Assembly: GCA_018238545.1 (NCBI GenBank)
Contig: JABCTC010000001.1
Location: 88,977-152,976, forward strand
Length of the DNA stretch: 64,000 bases
Source: Candidatus Heimdallarchaeota archaeon
GTDB taxonomy: Archaea; Asgardarchaeota; Heimdallarchaeia; Heimdallarchaeales; Heimdallarchaeaceae
Direction: 5' to 3'
The translations under genes and the position numbers were made by a program. The number at the start of each line of letters is the position of its first letter. The stretch's first letter is position 1. The notes under the pieces are model-generated. The model saw only the letters and a list, made by a program, of their open reading frames with translations. It ran no database searches and was not told the DNA's origin. Shown piece by piece: positions 1,891-64,000 of this stretch.

Positions 1891-2142
1891 CTTCCCTTTC
1901 AGACATACTTTTATTTCTATTGATATTATTCGTTAGTACAAAATAAAGTTATCTTAATTTGCAATTAGTTTGTTCTTTAATATAAAAAGAAAATTCATTA
2001 AAGAAAAACTGAAACAAAGGTATTAGCTCTCTAAATCACAAATCAATTTTGTCGGTATTTACACCGTGTAAGTTTTGAGGAAAGAGATATATACAACATT
2101 TCACTATTGTATGCTGTACTCGCTGATAGGGTGTGTAAGAAT

Positions 2143-4890
2143 ATGAATAGACAGAATTTAATGAAAACAACTTTCATTATTCTACTTTTGACACTTTCTA
2201 TGATTGGGGTTTCTAATCAAGCTGCTCAAGCTCTAAATTACACTCAAGACCCCTCTACTGAAGAAGTGCAACAAGTAGCAACTGAACCGGCACAAGATCA
2301 AATAGGATTGCAAGACGCGGCTGATACAATTGAAATCTGGATTGTGCAAGATTTTGTGATAACGGTATATGATTTGGCATTGATGGAATGTCATGTGCTA
2401 AGTCTTTATGGAATTGAAATTGAAGCGGATATAGAAGTATGGATACAATATGACAATGGTAGTGTTTTCCTTATCTATCAAGAATCAAGAATACTGTTTC
2501 CTTACTTGGAATATATCTTTAATGTAAATCATACTTTCACGTTAGTAGGTTTCCATTTAGTTAATCTCAAAGTAATGGATATAACAAATAATCAAGAAGT
2601 TACAACAGAGTGCCAATGGGAAGTTATTGATGGTTACGTAGAACTAGCTATTATTCAAGACTACGAAGCTCAAGTCGGAATAGAGGTTAAGATGGAATTT
2701 TATATCTATAATGGGTATCCAGTAGCAAGGGAATATTTCATTGAAGTATTTCTTGATGATGGTTCGGGTCCAATACAAATACATATTGAAACGACAATTA
2801 TTGCAGCATATGATGTACTGATAATAGTAGTTTACTGGACCTTTTCTGTAGCGGGATATTATGAGGTAATGCTAAGAGTTGCTGATGTACCTGAAACAAA
2901 TGAATGGTTTTCTTATTGCCACTGGGAGGTTATGGATGGTTTCATAGATATAATAATTGAGCAAAATTATGAAGCATGGATTGGCATTGAGGAAAGGATA
3001 CAGTTCTGGGTTTACAACTACTATGCTATCGATATTACTGCTGACATCTCTGTTTGGATTGACAACGGAACACATGTAATTCAGATATGTTCTAGAACGG
3101 ATGTAGTAATATATGCTGGAACGTATTTTGTGGATGAAATTTTCTACACATTCATCTATGAAGGATTCTGGGAACTTTATGTAGAAGTTTTTGTAATTGA
3201 ACTCGATATTACGTGGATAGAATTTTGTCCAGAAGGATGGTATGTTTATGGTGGGTTCATAGATGTTTGGATCTACCAACGGTACGAAGTTTTCATTCTT
3301 GAAGAAGCTATAATGTATTGTTGGGTCATAAGTAATTACGCAGTTGATCGTGATATAGCTATTGAAGTGTGGATAAGTAATGCAACGCATAACATCTTGA
3401 TATATGGAGAAACTATGGTTATTACTCCTGGAGAAATGTATAACTTCACGGTATTTTGGACGTTCTTTTACGTGGATTATTGGGATGTAAAACTAGTTGT
3501 TATTGATTTATTCTCAGGAGAGCTGTATGTTGACTACTGTTATTGGTATGTTTATGGAGGATATTTTGATCTCTATATTTACCAAGAATACTATGGATTA
3601 ATCTCTGAAGATCTCTGGATGAGATTTGAGATATATAATTACTACGAAGTAGATAAGACCGTAGAAATTGAAATACTCATCTTCGATGGTGTAAATTATG
3701 TTCAAGTGTATTATATTGTGGACATTGTCAACTCACTTACATTTTGGATCTTGGATCTTTGTTACATATTTGAAGCCGCTGGATATTATGACGTGATACT
3801 AATTGTGACGGAAGTGGATACGGGAGAAGTGTGGATAGAATATTGTTGGTGGTACATCTATGCTGAATATCTAGATATCTGGATTGTCCAAGATATGGAA
3901 GCTTCAGTTGGTGAAGAGGTCCTTATGGAATTCTGGATAGTAAACTACTACTCAATTGAAATGGATTTGACAGTTCAAGTATGGATAAATGATGGAACGG
4001 ATAATGTCTTAGTTTATACTGACACCTCGGTGATAATTGCAGCTAATGGTATTTACTCATTCACGTTGCCTTATACATTCTTATACGCAGGATTTTACAC
4101 CATAACCTTAATTGTAATAGATGTAACAGGTGCTCAATGGTTTGAATACTGTAGATGGGATGTCTATGATGGATTCATTGATGTCTGGATAATTCAAGAC
4201 TATGAAGCTGTTGTAGGACAAGAAGTATGGATGGTATTCTACGCACAGAGTTACTATGGATATGATGTACCCATCTATATAGAAGTGAGAATAGACACGG
4301 GATACGGAATTATAATACTTTATTCAGACACCTTAGATATACTAGCTGGTCAACTACTAATGTGGAATCTAAGTTATATATTCTTGGACCCAGGAATATT
4401 CCAAATCTACTTTGTAATTGTTGAATTACAAACGGGTAATGTTTGGACTGCAGAATGTCGCTGGTATATCCACGATGATGGCTGGTTAGACATATGGATT
4501 GAACAAGGCTTCTATGGAGAAGTAGGAATAAACTATACTATGCAGTTTGGTGTGGGTAATCTGTTCTCAATAGATAAGAATCTGAATCTTGTAGTAAAAA
4601 TAGTTCAAGGAGCTGACTCTTGGATAGCGCATAATGAAACGAAATTGGTATTATCGATGACAACCTATGACTTCTACGTCTATTGGGTATTTGTGAACGA
4701 AGGTTGGTATGACGTTTACTTCATAGTTACTGATGTCACCACTGGAACCGTTAAAATAGTTGATTGCTGGTGGAAGATCGAGAAACCCGTTATACCTGAA
4801 TTCGGTGTCATAACTCTATTACCGTTACTAGGCGCTCTTTCTGCAGCGGTTTATTTAGCATTCAGAAGGAAAAGAAAACTAACTCACTAA
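2143..4890 (+). CDS. Secreted/surface protein with 8 tandem ~102-aa beta-rich (Ig-like) repeats and PEFG-TM-basic C-terminal anchor
   Basis: Signal peptide after ATG 2143; 8 repeats starting (F/Y)xD/ExxIxQ and ending CxW; ends VIPEFG + hydrophobic helix + RRKRK. Confidence 0.8.
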   Translation: MNRQNLMKTTFIILLLTLSMIGVSNQAAQALNYTQDPSTEEVQQVATEPAQDQIGLQDAADTIEIWIVQDFVITVYDLALMECHVLSLYGIEIEADIEVWIQYDNGSVFLIYQESRILFPYLEYIFNVNHTFTLVGFHLVNLKVMDITNNQEVTTECQWEVIDGYVELAIIQDYEAQVGIEVKMEFYIYNGYPVAREYFIEVFLDDGSGPIQIHIETTIIAAYDVLIIVVYWTFSVAGYYEVMLRVADVPETNEWFSYCHWEVMDGFIDIIIEQNYEAWIGIEERIQFWVYNYYAIDITADISVWIDNGTHVIQICSRTDVVIYAGTYFVDEIFYTFIYEGFWELYVEVFVIELDITWIEFCPEGWYVYGGFIDVWIYQRYEVFILEEAIMYCWVISNYAVDRDIAIEVWISNATHNILIYGETMVITPGEMYNFTVFWTFFYVDYWDVKLVVIDLFSGELYVDYCYWYVYGGYFDLYIYQEYYGLISEDLWMRFEIYNYYEVDKTVEIEILIFDGVNYVQVYYIVDIVNSLTFWILDLCYIFEAAGYYDVILIVTEVDTGEVWIEYCWWYIYAEYLDIWIVQDMEASVGEEVLMEFWIVNYYSIEMDLTVQVWINDGTDNVLVYTDTSVIIAANGIYSFTLPYTFLYAGFYTITLIVIDVTGAQWFEYCRWDVYDGFIDVWIIQDYEAVVGQEVWMVFYAQSYYGYDVPIYIEVRIDTGYGIIILYSDTLDILAGQLLMWNLSYIFLDPGIFQIYFVIVELQTGNVWTAECRWYIHDDGWLDIWIEQGFYGEVGINYTMQFGVGNLFSIDKNLNLVVKIVQGADSWIAHNETKLVLSMTTYDFYVYWVFVNEGWYDVYFIVTDVTTGTVKIVDCWWKIEKPVIPEFGVITLLPLLGALSAAVYLAFRRKRKLTH

Positions 4891-5162: not shown

Positions 5163-5489
5163 ATGATTAGATTGACAACCATTGAATCAAAAGAAGATGA
5201 TAAGGTTACTCTTTATCTAGAAACTTTAAGGAAATATCAAGAAGAAATCGAACAAAAGTTCAAAGTTAACTATCTAGGTATTTTTGGTTCATTTGTTAGG
5301 TCCGAGCAGAAAGAATGTAGTGATATTGATATTTTAGTTGAATTCTTTGAAACTCCTAGTCTATTTCAATTTATTCGATTAGAAAACTACTTGAGTGAAA
5401 TACTAGAAATAAAAGTAGATTTGGTAATGAAAGAAGCTCTCAAACACAACATAGGAAAGAGGATTCTCAAGGAGGTTATAGAAGTATGA
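5163..5489 (+). CDS. MNT (minimal nucleotidyltransferase) antitoxin
   Basis: GIFGSFVRSEQKECSDIDILVEF motif; 108 aa; overlaps the HEPN gene. Confidence 0.9.
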   Translation: MIRLTTIESKEDDKVTLYLETLRKYQEEIEQKFKVNYLGIFGSFVRSEQKECSDIDILVEFFETPSLFQFIRLENYLSEILEIKVDLVMKEALKHNIGKRILKEVIEV

Positions 5490-5851
5490 ATTCTAAACGA
5501 ATATACAGTGATTATTTAGAAGACATTATTGAATCAATTTTGAAAATTGAGGAATTTACAAAAGACATGAACTACATTCAATTCAAAGATGATTCAAAGA
5601 CATCATATGCAGTCATTCGAGCTTTTGAAATTATCGGAGAAGCAGCAAAAAAAATCCCAAATGAAATAAAGTACAAATATGCAAATCTCCCATGGAAAGA
5701 AATAGCAGGAATGAGAGATAAGCTAATACATGCATATTTTGGTGTGAATCTAGAAGTGGTCTGGAAAACAGTAATACAAGATATTCCTCATTTGAAACCT
5801 TTAGTTCTGGAAGTCATAAATGAGGAGAAAAAAGACAAAAACTCATCATAA
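5486..5851 (+). CDS. HEPN (DUF86/HepT) toxin
   Basis: EIIGEAAK and GMRDKLIHAY (RxxxxH) motifs. Confidence 0.9.
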   Translation: MNSKRIYSDYLEDIIESILKIEEFTKDMNYIQFKDDSKTSYAVIRAFEIIGEAAKKIPNEIKYKYANLPWKEIAGMRDKLIHAYFGVNLEVVWKTVIQDIPHLKPLVLEVINEEKKDKNSS

Positions 5852-6972: not shown

Positions 6973-8466
6973 ATGAAAAAAGGCTGGAAAATCGTTTTAG
7001 GGATTTCATTAGGATTAATTTTTATTGTCTCTTCGTTATTAGTAGTTCAAATGATTTGAATAACCACGGTAGATTATGAATGGTTGGAAGGAGAACCTGA
7101 AGACTATGGATTCAAATGGAATAAAATAGCTGCTACACGTCTTGTTGCCGAACAGATGCCCTATCTATCTTAGAAGTGTGCTTATCTTACGCACGTCATG
7201 AAACTTGGTCAAACTTGCCAGAGGCGGTCTAACCGTCGTTTAAGTGGGTCCCCTCACGTGCGTTGAGGGGAAGAATCATGAGGATCATGATTGGGAAAGG
7301 AATGAAGGGAGTGCGCATTTACTCCGACAACATTCCTGTCATTGCGCTTCGTGCTGTATGGTTCAAGCTTTATTAACTGAGGGATAAGTGTTCAAACACT
7401 TGCGAACCATAAACATGACGAGTTTTCGCCAAGCACTACCCATATATCAGCACTTTCCTATATAAACTCGTAGAAAAATGGGAGAAAATTAGAGAGGTAT
7501 TAACCATCATCACCTCAACATGCAATGATGAAAGCTCAGAGACTTCTGGCAAGATTGAATAAGATTTTAATCAGCTGTTGCTTACGGCTCAATGATGGGA
7601 CGTACTATGGAGCTAATCATATACATTCAGCATCAAAAAGTTTCATATCGGCGTTGATAGGTATAGCAATAAGAGAAGGTTACTTAACGGATTTGGATCA
7701 AAAGATACAAGATTACTTCCCAGAATATGTCGATTTAGCTCTAGAATCAATCAAGCAAGATATCACCATTCGTCACTTACTACAGATGAAAGCTGGATTT
7801 AATTTCAATGATTCAGCTGATGAATGGTATGATTATGCTTACAGTGCAAATTGGGTTAACTATGCTTTATCCTTACCTTTAACACATGATCCAGGAGAAA
7901 ATTGGCATTATTGTACACCTCAATCAAACTTGCTTTCTGTAATATTGACAAGAGCAACTAACATGAGCACAAAAGCCTTTGCTGACCAATTTCTTTTCGG
8001 TCCAATGAATATATCAATAAATTACTGGAGACAAGATCCTCAAGGTTACTACACTGGTGGGCATGAGATGTACTTTACTCCGAGGGATTTAGCACAATTT
8101 GGTCTACTTTATCTTAATAATGGTTCATTAAACGGAGAACAGATTGTTCCTGCTGAATGGGTGATAGAGTCTACTCAAGATTACGCTGTTGGTTTGGTAG
8201 AAACTGATGTTGCAATGACTGGTGGATTGGAATCTGATTTCTATAAAGGCACTGGCTATGGTTACCAATGGTGGTTGAAAGAAATGAGAGGGTACCGATC
8301 TTATTCGGCTCGTGGTCTTGGTGGTCAGTTTGTTTTCTGTTTTCCAGAACTAGATATGGTTGTTGTTACAACAGCTTCTGGAGATATTGTCAATGCCTAT
8401 CCTGGACAATATGAAGGAATAATTGACTTAATTGAATACAATATTTTGGGATCGATAATAGATTAA
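6973..8466 (+). pseudogene. Serine hydrolase (beta-lactamase/AmpC family), disrupted by an in-frame TGA, a small duplication and a ~400-bp insertion
   Basis: 5' part MKKGWKIVLG...QMI*ITTVDYEWLEGEPEDYG...MPYL then frameshifted RSVLILR; 3' part resumes at ~7590 with SASK (SxxK), YCT, YGYQWW and ARGLGGQ. Confidence 0.8.
7193..7435 (-). ncRNA. Putative structured ncRNA within a mobile-element remnant (omegaRNA-like hypothesis; strand inferred from a TATA box)
   Basis: GC-enriched; hairpins cccctca/tgagggg, aatcatga/tcatgatt, ggaatg..ggagt/actcc..cattcc, aagtgtt/aacactt, atggttc/gaaccat; closing stem cttgg..aaact/agttt..ccaag; TTTATATA on the minus strand at ~7459-7466. Confidence 0.55.
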
Positions 8467-29035: not shown

Positions 29036-29079
29036 CTCTTCTCCTTAATTTTTTGCTACAAATTTTTGGTGCAAATAAC

Positions 29080-29225
29080 TTATGACATGAATTCTATCTG
29101 AATTCTTTAGAAGTACCTAGGTACATCATGGGGACGCCACGAACCCTCCTACCCCGCCCACATCTTTTTGTAAAGATGCTTACGGTTCGCTTTTGGTTTT
29201 TAAGATGTAGACTCGAGGATCACCA
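29080..29225 (-). ncRNA. Conserved structured ncRNA candidate, copy 1 (strand inferred)
   Basis: About 80% identical to 48546-48692 with compensatory changes in two stems; minus-strand TTTATATA at ~29274-29281. Confidence 0.7.
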
Positions 29226-29336
29226 TAAAGTTGGTGCATATCTACAATCCTCACTGGATAATCTGTTTAACCCTATATAAATACCAAGAAAAATATACAA
29301 ACAACTTATAAGTAACAACCAAACCTTTGCACAGCA

Positions 29337-48480: not shown

Positions 48481-48545
48481 GAGATATTCTCTTTATCAGT
48501 ATTTTTTTGTTATTTTTTATTTTTAATTATTTTAACTGCATATCA

Positions 48546-48692
48546 TTATGACATGAATTTTGTACAAATTCTTTAGAAGTGCCTGAGCACATCATGGGGA
48601 CGCCATTTACCCTCCTACACCTCCCACAGCTTCTTGCAAAGATGCTTACGGTTCGCTTTGAGGTTTTTGTTGGATTTAGCTCCGAGGATCAC
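48546..48692 (-). ncRNA. Conserved structured ncRNA candidate, copy 2 (strand inferred)
   Basis: Homolog of 29080-29225 with covarying stems; minus-strand TTTAAATA at ~48731-48738. Confidence 0.7.
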
Positions 48693-48756
48693 TATGGGTC
48701 TTATAATTCTAAGTCAATGTGTTTCATTCGTATTTAAAAGAAGAAGGATGAAGAAA

Positions 48757-50726: not shown

Positions 50727-53033
50727 TTGACTTTTGTGACTGAAAAAGAAACGAAAACGATAAATGTTACAGGAATGACATGTGCCTCCTGTGTTGCTAG
50801 AGTAGAGAAAGCACTAATTTCCTTGGAAGGTGTAGAATCAGCAGCTGTAAATTTGCTAAGTCATAGTGCTCAAATCATTTTTGATCCTGATTTAGTTGAA
50901 GAAAAACAGATCTTCAAAATTGTTGAAAAAACAGGTTACAAAGCTTCTGAAAGAACAGATGAACTTTCTTTCATGAAGAATGAACAACTCATCGATATGC
51001 GAAACAGATTTATTGCAAGTCTTATTTTCGCTCTTCCTGTGCTTATTTTTGCAATGGGGGGTATGTTCTCTCCAATTTTTGCTATATGGATGGATGAAAC
51101 GATTATCTTTGAAGGTATGTTACTTACAGATTTTATTCAATTTATTCTAGCAACTCCAATACAGTTTATTATTGCATTTCCTTTTTACAAAGTAGCTTGG
51201 AAGAGTATAATTAACAAGAGCGCTTCCATGGATGTATTAGTAGTATTAGGCACACTTTCCGCATATTTTTACAGTCTATTTTCTATGATTTATCCTTACA
51301 TTCAACCAGCATTTGAAGGTGACATATTCTTTGAAACCTCTTCTATTCTTCTTACTTTCATCTTTCTAGGAAAGTATCTGGAAGAGGTTACAAAAGGTAG
51401 GACTTCTGAAGCTATAAAGAAACTCATAGAACTGAGACCAAATACAGCTATCGTAATAAGAGATGACCAGGAGATTGAAATTCCAATAGACGATGTAGCT
51501 ATAGGTGATATTTGTTTAATTCATCCAGGAACAAGTGTGCCTGTTGATGGTATCATTGTCGAAGGACAAAGCTATGTAAATGAGTCTATGATAACAGGTG
51601 AAAGTGTATCAGTTTTCAAAGAAAAAGAAGCTGAGATTATTGGTGGAACTATTAATGAAAACGGTTTTCTTAAGATGAGAACAACAAGAATTGGTAAGGA
51701 TACTACTTTGAATAAAATCATCAAAATGGTAGAAGATGCACAAACTTCAAAAATACCAATTCAACGTATGGCAGATCGTATATCTGCTCTGTTCGTTCCA
51801 GTAGTAATTGTTCTCGCTATTCTTTCATTTATCCTTTGGTTCTCGCTCTATAGTTTTGAGTTGATCTCCCTTCCTTTACCTGCAGGAACTAGTATATTTT
51901 TACTTGCGTTCCTCACATCTATTTCAGTATTAGTTATTTCCTGCCCATGTGCTCTGGGATTAGCAACTCCGACAGCTATAATGGTAGGAACAGGACTCGG
52001 GGCTCAAAATGGCATATTGATTAGAACTGGTGAAGCTCTTGAAATAGCAAGACAAGTTGATGTAGTGCTTTTTGATAAAACTGGTACTATAACAAAAGGT
52101 TTACCTGAAGTTACAAGTATTATATCGATTGAAGAAAGTTTATCTGAAAAGGAATTACTGCAAATAGCTGCATCTCTAGAAAAAGGTTCTGAGCATTCTC
52201 TAGCTAAGGCAATAATTTCTAAAGCAGAAGAAATGGAACTTGCATTCTTAAAGATTGAATCATTTAATGCTTTTCCAGGAAAAGGTATTGAAGCGACTAT
52301 TGATAATCATAACTTTTCAATTGGAAATAGAAAATTAGCTACTGAGCTTAAATCTACTATTCCTAGCTCAATAAACGACAAGATGGAAAACCTTGAGAAT
52401 GAAGGAAATACTGTAATGATTGTTTTTCGTGACAAGTCTCCAGTCGGAATAATATCTGTTGCCGATACTATAAAAGAATCTTCGAAAGAAGCAATTGAAT
52501 TGTTGAAGGAAATGGGTATGCTTACTGTTATGGTTAGTGGAGACAATGAAAGAGCAGCAAAAGCAATAGCTAATGAAGTAGGAATTTTTGAAGTTCATGC
52601 AGAAATCTTGCCTGAAGAAAAAGTCAATGTTGTTAAATCATATCAAGAAAAAGGATTGAAAGTTCTTTTTGGTGGAGATGGTGTTAATGATGCCCCCGCC
52701 TTAGCTCAAGCAGATGTAGGTGTAGCAATGGGGGCTGGCACTGATGTAGCTATTGAAGCAGGAGATATAGTTCTTATCAAAGATGATCTTCGTGATGTTG
52801 TAACAGCTATTGATTTAAGTAAGAAAACTATCAGAAGGGTTAAAATGGGTCTTTTCTGGGCTTTGATCTATAACGCTATTGGTATTCCTTTAGCTGCTGG
52901 TTTAAGTTTTGTTTGGTTTGGTGCCCCTATTCCTGCAGTATTTGCTGGATTAGCTATGTCTCTCTCTTCTGTCTCAGTAGTGATCAACGCATTGCTTCTA
53001 AAAAGATATAAGAATCCTTTTGAAAAAAGTTAA
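50727..53033 (+). CDS. copA: Cu(I)-translocating P1B-ATPase
   Basis: GMTCASC, TGES, CPCALGLATP, DKTGT, GDGVNDAP, YN..GIP. Confidence 0.95.
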   Translation: MTFVTEKETKTINVTGMTCASCVARVEKALISLEGVESAAVNLLSHSAQIIFDPDLVEEKQIFKIVEKTGYKASERTDELSFMKNEQLIDMRNRFIASLIFALPVLIFAMGGMFSPIFAIWMDETIIFEGMLLTDFIQFILATPIQFIIAFPFYKVAWKSIINKSASMDVLVVLGTLSAYFYSLFSMIYPYIQPAFEGDIFFETSSILLTFIFLGKYLEEVTKGRTSEAIKKLIELRPNTAIVIRDDQEIEIPIDDVAIGDICLIHPGTSVPVDGIIVEGQSYVNESMITGESVSVFKEKEAEIIGGTINENGFLKMRTTRIGKDTTLNKIIKMVEDAQTSKIPIQRMADRISALFVPVVIVLAILSFILWFSLYSFELISLPLPAGTSIFLLAFLTSISVLVISCPCALGLATPTAIMVGTGLGAQNGILIRTGEALEIARQVDVVLFDKTGTITKGLPEVTSIISIEESLSEKELLQIAASLEKGSEHSLAKAIISKAEEMELAFLKIESFNAFPGKGIEATIDNHNFSIGNRKLATELKSTIPSSINDKMENLENEGNTVMIVFRDKSPVGIISVADTIKESSKEAIELLKEMGMLTVMVSGDNERAAKAIANEVGIFEVHAEILPEEKVNVVKSYQEKGLKVLFGGDGVNDAPALAQADVGVAMGAGTDVAIEAGDIVLIKDDLRDVVTAIDLSKKTIRRVKMGLFWALIYNAIGIPLAAGLSFVWFGAPIPAVFAGLAMSLSSVSVVINALLLKRYKNPFEKS

Positions 53034-63662: not shown

Positions 63663-63940
63663 TATGCTATGTACAGTGAATTTCTTAAATAATAATGTTT
63701 TGGCATTAGAATGACTTTTAACGTCTATTTCTTACATAACTCAATAATATACTTCACTACTCAGAGTAGTTATTGTCTTGTTTCTTCTTGGAGGAGTAGC
63801 TTTTATAATTTGGGTAATTTTTTATTTTAACTATTATTTTATTAATATGCTTTTGTCTTTTTGTCTTCTTAGTGTGGAAATCTAGAAAAATTTTAGTGAT
63901 AGTACGGGTGTTTTTATAGTGAACTCTAGGTCAACGAAGG

Positions 63941-64000
63941 ATGGCAAAGGTACTGCGTGCAGAGCGTATAGAAGTGGAGTATCATCCAGCACTGAGCAGA
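63941..64000 (+). mobile_element. Probable start of an IS200/IS605-family TnpB gene (runs off the window)
   Basis: MAKVLRAERIEVEYHPALSR resembles TnpB N-termini that precede 'LCxxSKNLYN'; GC rises from ~63890; only 20 codons visible. Confidence 0.45.

Follow-up and report, generated by a model that had tools for sequence, protein, structure and literature searches.

Gene-less, mobilised carriers of an omegaRNA that need TnpB in trans are already known (PMC10055086; PMC10691335). A nexus pseudoknot and stem-loops have been described as universal for omegaRNAs (10.1101/2023.11.20.567912), and processed omegaRNAs down to 79 nt exist (PMC10278001). In the IS607 element CboIStron (10.1101/2023.11.20.567912), a serine TnpA is accompanied by a matched core at both ends, a TAM abutting the left end, subterminal inverted motifs, a nexus loop paired with the 3' end of the scaffold and a guide taken from the right flank. 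The IS607-linked TnpB of ISFba1 uses a multi-stem, pseudoknotted reRNA (RAGATH-18) whose contiguous 187-nt scaffold lies outside the ORF of the 387-aa protein (PMC11061315, PDB 8iaz). TranC exemplifies split guides for TnpB, of the tracrRNA-crRNA kind, in the setting of CRISPR, according to the account of Jin et al. 2025 given in PMC13639567. For AmaTnpB, an internal stretch of the mRNA inhibits cleavage in vitro, possibly by pairing with the omegaRNA, an observation made on one orthologue (PMC10278001).

Within the window, by which we mean the whole stretch of 64,000 nucleotides of Heimdallarchaeota DNA analysed, a hydrolase gene is interrupted by what is almost certainly a complete, gene-less IS607 mini-element (hereafter the mini) with a stand-alone omegaRNA. 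The mini and its autonomous parents, together the Heimdall family, resemble CboIStron in all the features listed above, the TAM and the right-flank guide being predicted, but differ in core and target (YGT/RCYGT versus GG/TGGG), in the lack of an intron, and in having a 647-aa D-E-H TnpB, a dedicated tnpB promoter and a conserved RNA hairpin inside the ORF. Like stand-alone omegaRNAs and PATE-like IS605 minis, the mini is gene-less, mobilised and equipped with a putative omegaRNA for a TnpB acting in trans, whereas its chemistry is that of IS607 rather than IS200/IS605, and its RNA has an extra ~165 nt of covarying structure around a module from the middle of tnpB. ISFba1 provides the best structural match to the parental TnpB and a comparably knotted RNA, although the Heimdall protein is far longer and its RNA has no Rfam match. 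The idea of a two-piece TnpB guide is shared with TranC as that account presents it; in the Heimdall family, by contrast, no CRISPR array was seen, both pieces lie on one transcript, and complementarity between them occurs in one clade without covariation. AmaTnpB likewise has a functional RNA feature inside the tnpB ORF, but the Heimdall hairpin is family-wide, covarying and kept by gene-less copies. Gene-less omegaRNA carriers are a known class, and what is unusual about the mini is that it amounts to a shortened tnpB transcript, with the parental tnpB promoter and a mid-ORF hairpin retained; our literature search found no description of a family-wide RNA module inside tnpB that gene-less copies retain.

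The interrupted gene encodes a serine hydrolase of the beta-lactamase fold, and an uninterrupted allele is present in congener G021:

6973..7188, plus strand: 5' fragment of the host hydrolase gene, by comparison with the intact G021 allele
7589..8466, plus strand: 3' fragment of the same gene, by its PF00144 match (E 2.5e-30) and comparison with the G021 allele

A first, sequence-only reading of the locus had described a hydrolase gene broken by GC-richer DNA, with host codons missing at one junction, and had called for comparison with an intact allele; the comparison upholds this description. The insert has a GC content of 46.5% (7193-7450) against 34% genome-wide. Relative to the G021 allele, the 5' fragment has a stop codon at 7057-7059 and a 4-bp duplication at 7162-7169, and the gene, being also split by the insert, is therefore a pseudogene. 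Host DNA at the 7588 junction, beside the left end of the element, is short by 27 bp. This loss is confined to the window copy, other insertions being without it, and may predate or postdate the insertion; target deletion as the insertion mechanism is ruled out by the precise empty sites of other copies. An assembly chimera appears unlikely, since both flanks are collinear with the single intact allele. Further upstream in the window, positions 2107-4890 encode a probable surface protein of 927 aa, repetitive, acidic and Tyr/Trp-rich, whose C-terminus is an anchor-like segment of the PEF type, and adjoining genes at 5163-5851 (108 and 121 aa) resemble, by inspection, a nucleotidyltransferase/HEPN toxin-antitoxin pair.

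The limits of the element, first placed at 7193 and 7590, are in fact 7189 and 7584-7588, and its DNA-level parts are as follows:

7189..7583, minus strand: non-autonomous IS607 derivative (the mini), 395 bp counting one core; boundaries are sharp and common to many copies, and other copies have precise empty sites
7584..7588, minus strand: target motif and predicted TAM, GCCGT (family consensus RCYGT), with the left copy of the CGT core; in a census anchored on part of the same motif, 36 of 41 two-ended elements have ACCGT followed by CGT (32) or ACTGT followed by TGT (4)
7545..7583, minus strand: left end, common to autonomous elements on contigs C71 and C82
7547-7559, minus strand: subterminal motif, one arm of a 9-bp inverted repeat and likely a TnpA site by analogy with 10.1101/2023.11.20.567912
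7479..7544, minus strand: variable spacer from left end to promoter, poorly conserved among minis

RCYGT precedes the left ends and the right ends close with the same YGT. Collinear empty homologues were found for six other insertions, and as the best of these keeps exactly one ACCGT, insertion occurs without duplication or loss. The 9-bp inverted repeat that had been proposed to bound a MITE does exist at 7214-7222/7545-7553, but it lies subterminally, 25-35 bp in from the ends, and so is no boundary of the element; such inverted motifs likely correspond to the TnpA motifs described for CboIStron. A DDE-type MITE is rejected on this position, on the absence of a TSD, on the asymmetry of the ends and on the parental transposase, which is an IS607 serine recombinase. 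A PATE, the IS200/IS605 counterpart, is rejected too, as the ends are common to serine-recombinase elements and not to Y1-transposase ones.

The proposal of an RNA-guided mobile element stands as far as a predicted TnpB-type guide RNA, with its own promoter and running into host DNA, is concerned; the view of it as a right-end remnant does not. Both ends are present, the same ~400-bp form is multicopy, what was taken for an ORF tail is an in-frame reading of the left end (which lies upstream of tnpA in the parents), and the ORF was lost in an old, family-level event rather than by a later deletion at this site. BLAST against the genome, the check proposed at the outset, recovered a full-length copy on contig C21 (95.5% identical), numerous partial copies where contigs end, and longer elements whose similarity is confined to one stretch of ~45 bp and one of ~90 bp at opposite ends. 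The genome has 27 right ends, at least 9 of them belonging to minis, and no more is claimed because the census could not separate tnpB-bearing from cut ends. Element DNA was matched in 20 of 23 congeners, many solely via the common right end, and the mini-specific core in 14 of the 23 and in both genomes of a second genus. A search of 46 order-level and 151 phylum-level genomes with a model of this core (R1) placed the mini-type core only in these two genera of one family; pattern matches outside Heimdallarchaeota came without stems, promoter and ends, and the viral sequences searched gave no real matches. Other repeats are present in the window. Two copies of a ~240-bp ORF-less structured repeat with a minus-strand TATA box lie at 29060-29320 and 48530-48700 (at least 8 in the genome, 75-86% identical), and in genome G012 a mini is inserted in such a repeat at its ACCGT. 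The start of a third multicopy repeat, with about 14 matches of 76-97% identity, occupies 63815-64000, where the contig ends.

The longer elements are the parents: 2.7 kb in length, with both ends in common with the mini, they encode a serine recombinase and a 647-aa TnpB. The recombinase is a MerR-HTH IS607 TnpA (NF033518, 170.9 bits, cut-off 110). The TnpB matches NF040570 at E 3e-7, below the cut-off, and its predicted structure (pLDDT 87.8) matches TnpB/Cas12f structures, best of all the IS607 TnpB 8iaz (Z 14.3, rmsd 5.5, 342 aligned residues). From profile, residue and structure comparisons together, the protein is assigned a TnpB/Cas12 fold that includes RuvC and a zinc finger. Neither D433 nor E531 varies, and H618 is nearly invariant; the canonical D-E-D triad is not found, the third position being His, and DNA cutting is for this reason only predicted, although a D-to-H change at the catalytic site has been described in other TnpB branches (PMC10691335). 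Relatives of this TnpB include three very long proteins (P0026, P0066 and P0067; 1,227-1,784 aa), two of which have a weak MazE-like DNA-binding match. A second TnpB clade, at 38-49% identity, often adjoins a tRNA gene (L056, L058, L248, L249, L253, L256, L258, L260, L261, L263, and G000 C68 near 51100-51340), and the 20 nt past its right end resemble a variant form of part of the neighbouring tRNA; such copies are possibly settled, aimed at tRNA alleles or at elements that integrate there.

Between the left end and the RNA, the mini has a promoter:

7459..7478, minus strand: archaeal promoter (T-tract/CG element and TATA box), homologous to the parental tnpB promoter by profile scan of tnpB loci

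The minus-strand promoter box named in the first reading is indeed present as the TATA box TTTATATA at 7466-7459. When the mini promoter profile was run over tnpB loci, the top position among ~2,000-2,800 fell 38-104 nt upstream of the tnpB match in every case (26/26), usually at least 20 bits above the next one. The parents therefore have, between tnpA and tnpB, a promoter devoted to tnpB, which the mini has kept. Host tRNA genes carry similar TATA boxes, at -35/-36 in 8 of 43, and TATA spacing predicts a transcript start near 7438, at the onset of the first helix.

The 5' and middle parts of the predicted RNA are organised as follows:

7349..7438, minus strand: 5' RNA domain, a three-way junction (P1, P2, P3/P4) with a fixed 19-nt bulge, by covariation
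7374..7406, minus strand: core module, a UUC-RCA hairpin-UGU followed by CCCUCAGUUA, with the same module inside tnpB codons 283-296, by synonymous sites, pairing and motif counts
7274..7347, minus strand: subfamily-specific middle domain, absent from subfamily B; in helix 5 of the model, one pair is double-changed in 5 of 14 copies
7347-7343 with 7317-7313, minus strand: internal pseudoknot of the middle domain
7292-7274, minus strand: hairpin of the subfamily-specific middle domain

The multi-hairpin RNA noticed on the minus strand withstands folding and comparison: this strand folds better than shuffles (z -3.7), and a 12-helix model of subfamily A is 95.8% paired in 14 copies, with double changes at 10 pairs. 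The minis fall into at least two subfamilies, A and B, whose outer folds differ around the same 55-nt core of fixed length, made of two stacked 8-bp helices and the 19-nt bulge (96.3% paired, 64 double changes in 25 copies). Two further pairings, of the variable bulge with upstream DNA and of the hairpin 5' strand with the 3' end of the scaffold, were discarded, each fitting few copies only. Rearranged relatives occur as well. Two single-copy derivatives are without the module: in one (G000 C51:3054-3381) the start of tnpA is joined to the right end, and in the other (L017) the interior between two CCCTCA repeats is lost and the pseudoknot is compensated in its own way. Among L240, L237 and L238 are minis in which part of the 5' domain is duplicated in tandem, and others that end just past the core. 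At L239 and L098:7690-7820 (G040 C21), a subfamily-B 5' RNA domain without promoter or ends sits amid a broken tnpA upstream of tnpB, with a short AGAGATAG match at the junction, an arrangement that suggests recombination between mini and parent.

The 3' part of the RNA is common to minis and parents:

7189..7271, minus strand: right-end omegaRNA scaffold including the right CGT core; in both TnpB clades the scaffold loop covaries with the 3' end
7271-7249, minus strand: nexus hairpin within the scaffold
about 7241-7201, minus strand: scaffold stem-loop
7263-7256 with 7196-7189, minus strand: conserved pseudoknot of the nexus loop with the last 8 nt, by covariation
7169..7188, minus strand: predicted guide, in the host flank past the right end; the flank varies among copies and its role is proposed by analogy with known TnpB systems

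The partner of the nexus loop is the terminal 7-8 nt of the element, and the two co-vary, in a variety of forms, in minis, in parents and in the 40%-identity TnpB clade. Judged by these pairings, the last ~85 nt is a standard omegaRNA scaffold, with the loop/end pairing as its nexus pseudoknot; by itself this scaffold is short, about 65-85 nt. The sequence past the right end varies among copies as expected of a guide. A different pseudoknot, CGUCAUG with CAUGACG, had been suggested earlier; it depends on substitutions private to the window copy, and none of the 19 other loci checked has it. Searching Rfam with the element listed no match at E<=10 and, in a second search, none at E<=0.5 (RAGATH-18 included), which leaves room for distant homology. 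Inspection revealed no hammerhead, HDV-like or pistol ribozyme core motifs.

A search of the parents with the mini-core model returned weak matches at one recurring spot within tnpB, where codons 283-296 hold the same UUC-RCA...UGU hairpin and the same following motif. R1 scores this in-ORF form weakly (E>1), owing to differences in the length of the loop and in the outer stem; the case for linking mini core and in-ORF hairpin rests instead on frozen synonymous sites, best-window pairing, the profile scan and a genome motif census. Codons 280-294 are frozen at their synonymous sites (0.78-0.98, where the mean is 0.56 and the sd 0.12), and none of the other windows in the tnpB ORF, 33,858 in all, pairs as well as the hairpin. 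It covaries in 44 genes, positions that change the amino acid included, a result reached by none of 500 shuffles. It is kept in 9 of 10 homologues at 26-36% identity, for which the span of the synonymous-shuffle control was chosen on the real sequence and leans in its favour. Matches to the motif in the genome lie without exception within minis or tnpB genes (15/15; background 2 per 18 Mb), and the frequent G-U pairs in hairpin and core point to a sense-strand RNA. In the profile scan, the rest of the mini interior showed no convincing counterpart in the tnpB ORF; a circular permutation of the module in minis, based on one 10-nt match, was unsupported by the same scan. The mini keeps the parental order of tnpB promoter, in-ORF hairpin and right-end scaffold, with the distance from hairpin to scaffold reduced from ~1,030 to ~110 nt.

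We lean towards a mechanism in which the mini borrows both TnpA and TnpB in trans and the in-ORF hairpin is a second RNA element that TnpB needs. By analogy with known IS607 systems, TnpA would excise the mini, probably as a circular intermediate, and insert it at the core, while the promoter would make an RNA of ~250 nt plus a host-derived guide. As in CboIStron and IS605 work, TnpB would bind the mini RNA and cut the empty site after excision, and recombination would then restore the mini copy. Carried on one transcript with the 3' scaffold, the hairpin would act as a distant piece of that scaffold or as a signal for loading; that gene-less copies keep a mid-ORF hairpin is most simply explained if TnpB needs it on the guide transcript. 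The mini, as a shortened tnpB transcript, would then be a natural fused guide with its two parts brought together. Extended to the family, this becomes a plausible but tentative proposal: a TnpB family with a two-part guide, one part overprinted mid-ORF ~1 kb from the scaffold, and minis as natural single-guide fusions expressed from the tnpB promoter. Against a second guide part, no covarying pairing between in-ORF hairpin and 3' scaffold was found; the unpaired CCCUCA that follows the hairpin has its complement in the 3' strand of the nexus, both in the parent clade and in almost every mini, but the second clade has lost this match. Moreover, the 3' scaffold already has the universal omegaRNA features and could suffice alone, the C51 and L017 derivatives exist without the module, and one distant TnpB homologue is without the hairpin.

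The same observations can be read in terms of control, the chief rival reading, which we consider rather unlikely although it has the precedent of the inhibitory AmaTnpB mRNA. Here the hairpin would be a regulatory brake or operator that silences the omegaRNA within the mRNA or curbs expression by binding TnpB or TnpA, the mini would keep that control or act as a decoy, and the guide RNA would be the last ~85 nt. The CCCUCA complementarity and the seemingly complete 3' scaffold agree with this; however, the second clade has retained the hairpin after losing the complementarity, and an ORF-less mini gains little from translational control, yet core length and spacing are fixed. It is improbable that the 5' domain merely stabilises or processes the RNA, as a nuclease block, processing signal or host-protein site unread by TnpB: subfamilies A and B do enclose the core in different long 5' stems, as end protection predicts, but the same motif at one tnpB codon position across 26-100% identity would go unexplained, and no Rfam family matches. 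That the interior is a passive deletion relic or a DNA-level TnpA enhancer in a MITE-like passenger without functional RNA is hardly credible: simple deletion derivatives such as C51 occur, but many helices carry compensatory changes and strand-specific G-U pairs, the TATA box is conserved at a fixed distance, and the remaining interior has no similarity to tnpB.

Through what it has deleted and what it has kept, the mini singles out the cis parts that count in a TnpB element: both ends, the promoter of tnpB, the 3' scaffold and a single mid-ORF hairpin. Because TAM, guide boundary and RNA are all predicted, a direct test of the preferred mechanism, in which TnpB needs the hairpin, is possible. 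If the hairpin is part of the RNP, the usual recipe of the last 150-250 nt with a recoded gene would fail for the Heimdall TnpB family, and the mini RNA would be the right construct. If the two-part guide holds true, the family would represent a non-CRISPR route to split guides, with the mini RNA as a ready guide for a putative D-E-H nuclease family, and would bear on how guides became split in the transition from TnpB to Cas12.
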